Origin: Escherichia coli
GTDB taxonomy: Bacteria > Pseudomonadota > Gammaproteobacteria > Enterobacterales > Enterobacteriaceae
Reading direction: 5' to 3' (one strand)
Assembly: GCF_030384885.1 (NCBI RefSeq)
Contig: NZ_CP128613.1
Length of the DNA: 64,000 nt
Part shown: one piece after another, positions 25,382 to 25,919 of the stretch
Position numbering within the stretch: position 1 is the stretch's first letter
How the letters are laid out: every line of letters begins with the position of its first letter
Made by a program: the position numbers and the translations under genes
Notes under the pieces: generated by a model
Databases searched by the model: none
What the model was told of the DNA's origin: nothing
What the model saw: the letters and a program-made list of their open reading frames with translations, nothing else

Positions 25382-25761
25382 AATGAATCCTTTTTCGATT
25401 TATGAGAATAAATACTCATTTAAGGGTGAAAACATTTTGCCTGCAAATGATTATCAAGAAATATAACATTATCGAAGTATTCAAATTAACAACTATTAAA
25501 TAATATTAAACATTTTTAACGTAAGCATTAAGAATATTCATCTTGTTATCTGCCTGTATTTTAAACAGAATTAAACCAGTACTAGATTCCGTATGAATAT
25601 CTCGAAATGTTGCTGTGTATCACATACAAATCATTACTGCAGGACCATAGTATTTACATAAAGTTTGTCCCCCGGAGGTAGTCATCGCAGCAATCGAGTA
25701 AATTAGCTTCACCACGGTATATTGTTTCCGTAGAATACCCATAATTATAAGAGAGGTTGTT

Positions 25762-25821
25762 ATGATTGAACGTGAACTGGGGAACTGGAAAGACTTTATC
25801 GAAGTTATGCTTCGTAAGTAA
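25762..25821 (+). CDS. ypfM: Micro-protein YpfM (19 aa)
   Basis: ATG at 25762 preceded by GAGAGG; encodes MIERELGNWKDFIEVMLRK; too short for the ORF track. Confidence 0.6.
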   Translation: MIERELGNWKDFIEVMLRK

Positions 25822-25881
25822 TTCCTGAGACAAAGTACAAACAGAAAGTACCTGCTGAACAGGTTCTTTATCGGAAAGTTG

Positions 25882-25914
25882 AAAAAGGCGACACATTGGT
25901 ATGTCGCCTTTTTA
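25882..25914. terminator. Candidate bidirectional rho-independent terminator (ypfM / acrD)
   Basis: aaaaAGGCGACAcattggtaTGTCGCCTtttt perfect 8-bp stem flanked by A/T runs on both sides. Confidence 0.6.
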
Positions 25915-25919
25915 ATTGC

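Follow-up and report, generated by a model that had tools for sequence, protein, structure and literature searches.

The AT-rich spacer between yffB and acrD of Escherichia coli and the small-protein gene ypfM

The spacer of about 540 bp between yffB and acrD in Escherichia coli is far richer in A and T than its surroundings and appears to hold a single gene, ypfM, with only 19 codons. This raises the question whether such DNA is a foreign segment silenced by H-NS, which might hide small RNAs or small proteins as a preliminary description proposed, or belongs to the regulatory equipment of the genes around it. We consider it very likely that the spacer is an ancestral control region serving two divergently oriented units (yffB-dapE and ypfM), together with a terminator common with the convergent gene acrD.

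Position, composition, and variation of the spacer

The window, i.e., the whole stretch of 64,000 nucleotides that was analysed, carries dapE (23894..25021), yffB (25025..25381), and acrD (25920..29033) on the minus strand, and the ends of yffB and acrD at 25381 and 25920 define a spacer of 538 bp at 25382..25919. This order is the reverse complement of acrD (b2470)-ypfM (b4606)-yffB (b2471)-dapE in K-12. The GC content of the spacer is 0.333, compared with 0.528 for the whole 64-kb window. When segments of 538 bp were slid along the window, the minimum GC content (0.327) was reached at 25334-25349, which makes the spacer region the most AT-rich stretch of the window; with 200-bp segments over the whole 64 kb, the lowest value (0.235, at 25375-25376) was again placed within the spacer region. 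Thus, the preliminary description was correct in the coordinates and content that it gave for an AT-rich spacer with the 19-codon ypfM, and its GC content is indeed the lowest in the window. Base composition is uneven along the spacer, with a GC content of 0.28 in 25382..25453, 0.24 in 25469..25597, and 0.37-0.43 from 25598 on, so the extreme AT content lies mainly in the yffB leader and in a 129-bp tract upstream of the yffB promoter. This tract (25469..25597, no strand) lies 5' of that promoter and is poorly conserved in sequence. Other stretches of lowest GC content in the window are found at approximately 40605, 56500..58500, 30916, and 15449 (200-bp GC content of 0.285-0.36), and the AT-rich zone of several hundred bp at 56.5-58.5 kb might suit acquired or H-NS-bound DNA better than the spacer does.

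A 701-bp query around the spacer had matches in 5,425 of 5,426 complete E. coli genomes. The region is 100% identical in strain 2013C-4282, in which it is annotated as yffB (ArsC-family reductase), ypfM (protein YpfM), and acrD. For 25300..26000, an identity of at least 99% was observed in only 7 of the 5,426 E. coli records, most of them having 95-99% identity (approximately 3% difference). The small number of such records indicates that the spacer is fairly polymorphic within E. coli, in agreement with the use of the yffB/acrD spacer region as a host-source marker (PMC11267920). In E. coli strain 81 (NZ_CP088131.1, locus 3793..4766, designated L083), an IS1A element is present in the spacer at a position corresponding to approximately 25591 of the window, and the DNA as far as aegA, with ypfM, acrD, and narQ, is absent, implying that ypfM is dispensable in at least one natural isolate.

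The ypfM gene, its transcript, and the terminator

The ypfM coding sequence occupies 25762..25821 on the plus strand, with an ATG at 25762, 19 codons, and a TAA stop codon at 25819..25821. Its peptide, MIERELGNWKDFIEVMLRK, is the same as that encoded by K-12 b4606, and it is also identical to WP_001386977.1 (protein YpfM), the product annotated at the 100%-identical locus. As an open reading frame (ORF) of 19 codons could be due to chance, 80 yffB loci from other enterobacterial species carrying close YffB relatives were compared. In approximately 68 of these 80 loci, the strand opposite to yffB encodes a YpfM-like peptide upstream of that gene, nearly always with a length of exactly 19 codons. 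All core Enterobacteriaceae have ypfM, as do Dickeya, Hafnia, some Yersinia, and one Erwinia-like species. In every case it is oriented divergently from yffB; this also holds for Dickeya, in which the adjacent DNA showed no acrD end.

Codon analysis was carried out on 71 ypfM coding sequences including that of the window, which represent 55 distinct sequences. Third positions vary in 16 of the 19 codons, compared with nine first and seven second positions, and the mean entropy is 0.725 at third positions vs approximately 0.25 at positions 1 and 2. Codon differences comprise 183 synonymous and 109 non-synonymous changes, the latter being concentrated at codons 4 and 15. This pattern is a clear protein-coding signature across the 71 loci. 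The NCBIfam model NF033843 (small_YpfM, equivalog) was scanned against 20-aa homologues from Yersinia (the E. coli peptide has 19 aa) and matched them over profile positions 1-19 with 32.1 and 34.2 bits, the cutoff being 33; in a Pfam scan of YpfM homologues, no model matched. YpfM itself is a soluble, polar peptide of 19 residues with zero net charge. Top-down mass spectrometry has detected it intact, covering 100% of the sequence and showing a formyl-Met, and targeted (PRM) assays can quantify it (PMC12529367). Of the growth conditions examined there by PRM, low-Mn2+ medium was the only one with YpfM present in every replicate. The conserved length, the excess of third-position variation, and the detection by mass spectrometry together establish ypfM as a real small-protein gene, as previously proposed. 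The preliminary description had named the absence of any transcription or translation signal over 25762..25821 as evidence against such a gene, and this absence is contradicted by the published detection of the peptide and by that of the RNA in Salmonella.

An ORF of 80 aa on the minus strand (25654..25896), which is codon-aligned antisense to ypfM, is spurious. It has an internal stop in 14 of 68 loci, and elsewhere the frame stays open over 33 to 120 codons, with flanks that are unrelated and ends that are not conserved, justifying the earlier suspicion that it is probably not a gene. That it stays open in E. coli is due solely to the absence of TTA, CTA, and TCA among the ypfM codons.

The consensus scan identified one sigma-70-like site for ypfM, designated P1 (25708..25736, plus strand; TTCACC-17 bp-TAGAAT), whose hexamers match the consensus at 9 of 12 positions and whose transcription start site (TSS) is predicted at approximately 25743. 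The same ypfM promoter was predicted by Shimada et al. (2014) within a peak of RpoD-holoenzyme SELEX (PMC3946193). Among 33 species, out to Dickeya and Yersinia, the hexamers and the 17-bp spacing of P1 are kept while the letters of its spacer vary, and the -10 hexamer becomes TATAAT in Dickeya and Yersinia. Just 5' of the -35 hexamer, an element on the same strand (25683..25704, consensus aATCAcAGcAATcGgtTAAAt) is conserved in the alignments and may represent an UP element or an activator site. A start at the predicted site would give a 5' UTR of approximately 19 nt (25743..25761) and an mRNA of approximately 171 nt from P1 to the terminator in E. coli. Within this 5' UTR, the Shine-Dalgarno sequence AGAGAGG (25750..25756) lies 5 nt before the ATG, and the block aATAATAAGAGAGG-N5-ATG is nearly invariant across genera; the ribosome-binding site that had been regarded as plausible is real.

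A scan against Rfam placed STnc250 (RF01409, "Hfq binding RNA") at 25801..25920 on the plus strand with 39.4 bits (E = 2e-6). The alignment includes the full model (positions 1-94) and covers the end of the coding sequence and the terminator; the score is below the gathering score of 42 because of a 32-nt insertion in the 3' UTR of E. coli. In Salmonella, STnc250 is located between acrD and yffB and contains the ypfM ORF; Northern blots revealed a stable, growth-phase-dependent signal of approximately 220 nt, and the RNA was enriched 4-fold in Hfq co-immunoprecipitation (Sittka et al. 2008, PMC2515195). In RNA-seq of S. Typhi, STnc250 was the most abundant among the mapped Hfq-bound RNAs.

The body of the ypfM 3' UTR (25822..25881, plus strand) is not conserved in sequence and contains a small hairpin at 25850..25864 in Escherichia. 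Considering that it cannot be aligned between genera, it holds no conserved 3'-UTR seed. On average, the 3' UTR bodies fold somewhat better than shuffled sequences, with a mean z of -0.92 among 54 distinct sequences, a value which is indicative only since these sequences are related by phylogeny. In most ypfM 3' UTRs, a small hairpin immediately precedes the terminator; this hairpin is also encoded in the Rfam STnc250 model.

The terminator itself (25882..25913, both strands) is a hairpin of 12 pairs with a loop of 8, lying between an A-run and a T-run. On the ypfM strand (plus), the hairpin is followed by UUUUUAAUU (TTTTT), which gives a U-tail of 5 U in E. coli; on the acrD strand (minus), the same stem is followed by UUUUUCAACUUU (UUUUUC), with z = -5.4 relative to shuffled sequences. 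A terminator with flanking A and T runs is kept in nearly every locus, 31-88 nt past the ypfM stop codon. Compensatory changes of the stem were observed among 44 loci, pairing being always retained: the third pair of the core is G-C in 39 loci and A-T in 5, and the fourth is A-T in 31, G-C in 11, and C-G in 2. The stop codon of acrD (25920..25922) is 6 nt from the hairpin, which is therefore positioned to terminate both ypfM and acrD. Folding on both strands, a U-run on each side, and the compensatory changes bear out, at the level of sequence, the bidirectional terminator of the preliminary description. Partial Rfam matches on both strands indicate that the stem at 25882..25913 is nearly identical to that of CsrC; a relative of CsrC is ruled out at this site, the likeness being that of terminators only. 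The Rfam matches to CsrC, sraA, and STnc420 reflect similarity of terminator hairpins or are at chance level.

Promoters and conserved elements in the upstream part of the spacer

The spacer had been thought to contain only ypfM, a view that has to be amended because the promoter and leader of yffB-dapE and a conserved block upstream of ypfM are present as well. The yffB-dapE promoter is represented by an extended -10 element, TGTTATATT, at 25460..25468 on the minus strand. This element is shared by Escherichia, Citrobacter, Salmonella, and Enterobacter and takes the form TATATT in Klebsiella; its position agrees with the TSS of Salmonella yffB, which lies at -97 from the AUG and from which a reporter was built in a study of SdsR (PMC5137417). 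In the Salmonella locus, the -97 TSS is found 8 nt past the conserved TATATT of TGTTATATT; applied to the element at 25468..25460 in the window, this spacing would place the start of E. coli yffB near 25453. The resulting putative 5' leader of yffB-dapE (25382..25453, minus strand) has approximately 72 nt and a GC content of 0.28, with the Shine-Dalgarno sequence AAGGA at 25392..25388 in a conserved block, AATCCTTT, and it is unstructured (z = +0.33). Full-length SdsR sRNA represses Salmonella yffB, as measured with a reporter that contained the yffB 5' UTR and the first 25 codons (PMC5137417), and a predicted Fur box in the Salmonella yffB leader has been reported along with 2.6-fold derepression in a fur mutant (PMC3212961). 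The yffB promoter given in the SELEX paper (TTCATA-16-TTTAAT) is present in the window at 25597..25570 on the minus strand; we rejected it since it is not conserved and disagrees with the Salmonella TSS. The RpoD SELEX peak at K-12 position 2589272 (older coordinates) corresponds to approximately 25378 in the window and adjoins the most AT-rich DNA.

Next to the AT-rich tract, a block of 54 bp (25598..25651, no strand) is conserved with the pattern t.Tttc.aAAT.TTGC..T...TCACAt.aaatt, approximately 12 variable bases, and CATAGT at 25646..25651. It was detected in 52 of 70 ypfM loci at a fixed distance of 150-166 nt from the ATG. TTGC-N6-TCACA is invariant, and the conserved CATAGT follows TTGC at a distance of 36 nt. 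With CATAGT as a -10 hexamer, TTGC-N6-TCACA would be centred approximately 41.5 bp upstream of the start, i.e., in the geometry of class II CRP/FNR-type sites. We therefore propose as a hypothesis that TTGC-N6-TCACA (centre 25616.5) could be a class II activator site with CATAGT as the -10 hexamer of a second ypfM promoter, which would extend the ypfM 5' UTR to approximately 100 nt. Transcript lengths in Salmonella are relevant to this hypothesis: a start of the CATAGT type predicts 227 nt, close to the published ~220 nt, whereas P1 predicts 146 nt. The size on the Northern blot thus suits a start near CATAGT better than P1, and P1 may not be the only or the main promoter. The left half-site of TTGC-N6-TCACA is a poor match to CRP. 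When motifs for CRP, FNR, sigma-54, sigma-E, CytR, PurR, ArcA, MntR, and OxyR were compared with the block by eye, a partial CRP/FNR-like fit was the only one obtained, and the block was assigned to none of these regulators.

Over the same block, a Cys-rich ORF of 22 aa (25593..25661) was considered and rejected as coding: its start is missing in 16 of 52 loci, its length varies from 8 to 80 aa, and it has no third-position excess. A MarA ChIP site has been published at ypfM<>yffB in Salmonella. Its closest match was found in Salmonella enterica subsp. diarizonae (locus L013, 2268..2282; 3 mismatches) just upstream of the conserved block, and 34 of 200 shuffled sequences contained a match of equal quality by chance; the E. 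coli spacer lacks any match to the Salmonella site within 3 mismatches. Neither ypfM nor yffB has an entry in the supplementary material of Adams 2021 or in that of the MarA paper.

Taken together, the spacer would function in two directions. Leftward, the extended -10 promoter TGTTATATT (25468..25460) would drive yffB-dapE(-ypfN) through the AU-rich, unstructured leader of approximately 72 nt. Rightward, the sigma-70 promoter at 25708..25736 would produce a monocistronic ypfM mRNA of about 170 nt, on which the strong ribosome-binding site would direct the synthesis of YpfM. This mRNA would end at the hairpin flanked by A and U runs, and the same hairpin, formed on the other strand, would terminate acrD. 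For E. coli, we infer the transcription starts, the efficiency of termination both ways, and the in vivo occupancy by H-NS.

Codon constraint, alternative explanations, and comparison with known systems

Synonymous sites in ypfM are under far stronger constraint than in the adjacent yffB. In the same 56 loci, the mean fraction of the major codon is 0.87 in ypfM vs 0.68 in yffB, and 6 of 14 codons in ypfM are at least 95% fixed, compared with 7% in yffB. GAA5, AAC8, and AAA10 are invariant in all 56 loci, and the rare glycine codon GGG7 is present in 54 of them. Across genera, synonymous sites are almost frozen at codons 5-10 (25774..25791), whereas their equivalents in yffB vary freely in the same genomes. 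This constraint could reflect selection on the translation of a very short ORF or an interaction at the RNA level, which would agree with the association with Hfq. One might suppose that the ypfM/STnc250 RNA has a dual function, encoding YpfM and engaging in Hfq-dependent base pairing, or that it is a tightly regulated sRNA target, with the nearly invariant stretch GAA-CTG-GGG-AAC-TGG-AAA (25774..25791) as the pairing region. We consider this unlikely, even though the RNA is enriched with Hfq in Salmonella, the 3' module with two hairpins and a U-tail is recurrent, and no intramolecular structure accounts for the codon constraint (RNAalifold found no conserved structure in the ypfM 5' UTR and coding sequence, with -1.41 kcal/mol and 0 compensatory pairs). 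The 3' UTR, which is the usual reservoir of seeds, is not conserved, the E. coli U-tail has only 5 U, and the same constraint could result from selection for a very short ORF to be initiated and translated efficiently. Moreover, the 4-fold Hfq enrichment is modest, and Sittka et al. themselves reclassified STnc250 as a small mRNA (PMC2515195). A similarly low probability is given to the possibility that codons 5-10 are kept for an RNA-RNA or RNA-protein contact of the ypfM RNA as well as for the peptide, or that the putative activator-dependent upstream promoter partly drives ypfM.

Far less probable is the explanation that the spacer is an AT-rich islet acquired horizontally and silenced by H-NS, with a so far undiscovered sRNA or protein concealed in it. 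Its GC content is the lowest in the window, and binding of both the RpoD holoenzyme and H-NS in the spacer has been observed by genomic SELEX, in vitro only (Shimada et al. 2014, PMC3946193). Three loose matches to the H-NS nucleation motif TCGATAAATT also occur in the spacer, but the motif has 64 matches in the whole window vs 55.7 expected, which is no more than chance, and it is thus not informative. The most AT-rich part (25469..25597) is not conserved and has no Rfam match, and no ORF in or beside it has a coding signature (the 22-aa ORF over the adjacent block was tested). A xenogeneic origin is contradicted by synteny, which extends across families, and by the conservation of the functional blocks: the spacer is core DNA present in all but one of the E. 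coli genomes and in most of the loci from other species, and both synteny and sequence blocks are kept across more than 60 enterobacterial species. Silencing disagrees with the expression of both flanking transcription units, with YpfM having been seen by mass spectrometry and ypfM mRNA on Northern blots and in RNA-seq of Salmonella. Therefore, of the H-NS target postulated in the preliminary description, an H-NS site observed in vitro stands, but silencing does not, and the spacer, being syntenic core DNA that is expressed, is neither foreign nor silenced. Its AT-rich composition suits promoter function and the binding of nucleoid proteins and is no sign of foreign DNA. Finally, that STnc250/ypfM is essentially a non-coding sRNA with an incidental 19-codon ORF, as its first cataloguing among sRNA candidates, the Rfam label, and the association with Hfq might suggest, is effectively refuted by mass spectrometry of the intact peptide and the strong codon-position signature, and the start codon, ribosome-binding site, and ORF length are invariant across genera.

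An ancestral control region for yffB-dapE and ypfM with a terminator common with acrD remains the preferred explanation, and much of it has precedents: the ypfM gene, its RNA, the predicted promoter, the protein, and the binding of RNA polymerase and H-NS in the spacer are already known from databases or papers. The unusual constraint on synonymous sites in ypfM is possibly new, as is the putative activator-dependent promoter within the conserved block; as far as we could find, the 54-bp block has no earlier description. The locus offers a compact and well-conserved example of a stand-alone small-protein gene and carries little weight for discovery. The extended -10 of yffB as placed in E. coli, the 54-bp block, and the excess synonymous-site constraint may serve as handles for the regulation of YpfM.

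Compared with known systems, the locus shows no difference of substance from that of YpfM in K-12 (b4606; NF033843), sharing the peptide, the position between acrD and yffB, and the predicted promoter, although the window derives from another E. coli strain and its 701-bp region differs by approximately 3% from most genomes. With STnc250 of Salmonella (RF01409), it shares the orthologous acrD/yffB locus, the ypfM strand, the end of the coding sequence, and the terminator core, whereas the E. coli 3' UTR has the 32-nt insertion, the score is 39.4 instead of 42 bits, and the association with Hfq is known from Salmonella. The terminator resembles bidirectional terminators between other convergent E. 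coli genes in its GC-rich hairpin, which has an A-run and a T-run at its two sides and folds on both strands. Among small-protein genes, MgtS (YneM)/STnc570 and AzuC/AzuCR are similar to ypfM in having short stand-alone transcripts with their own promoter and an intrinsic terminator, in encoding proteins of at most 50 aa, and in having been recovered with Hfq and first listed as sRNAs. Partners or regulators are known for MgtS and AzuC, both of which associate with the membrane, whereas YpfM is polar with zero net charge. AzuCR is a proven dual-function RNA (bioRxiv 10.1101/2021.04.27.441574).
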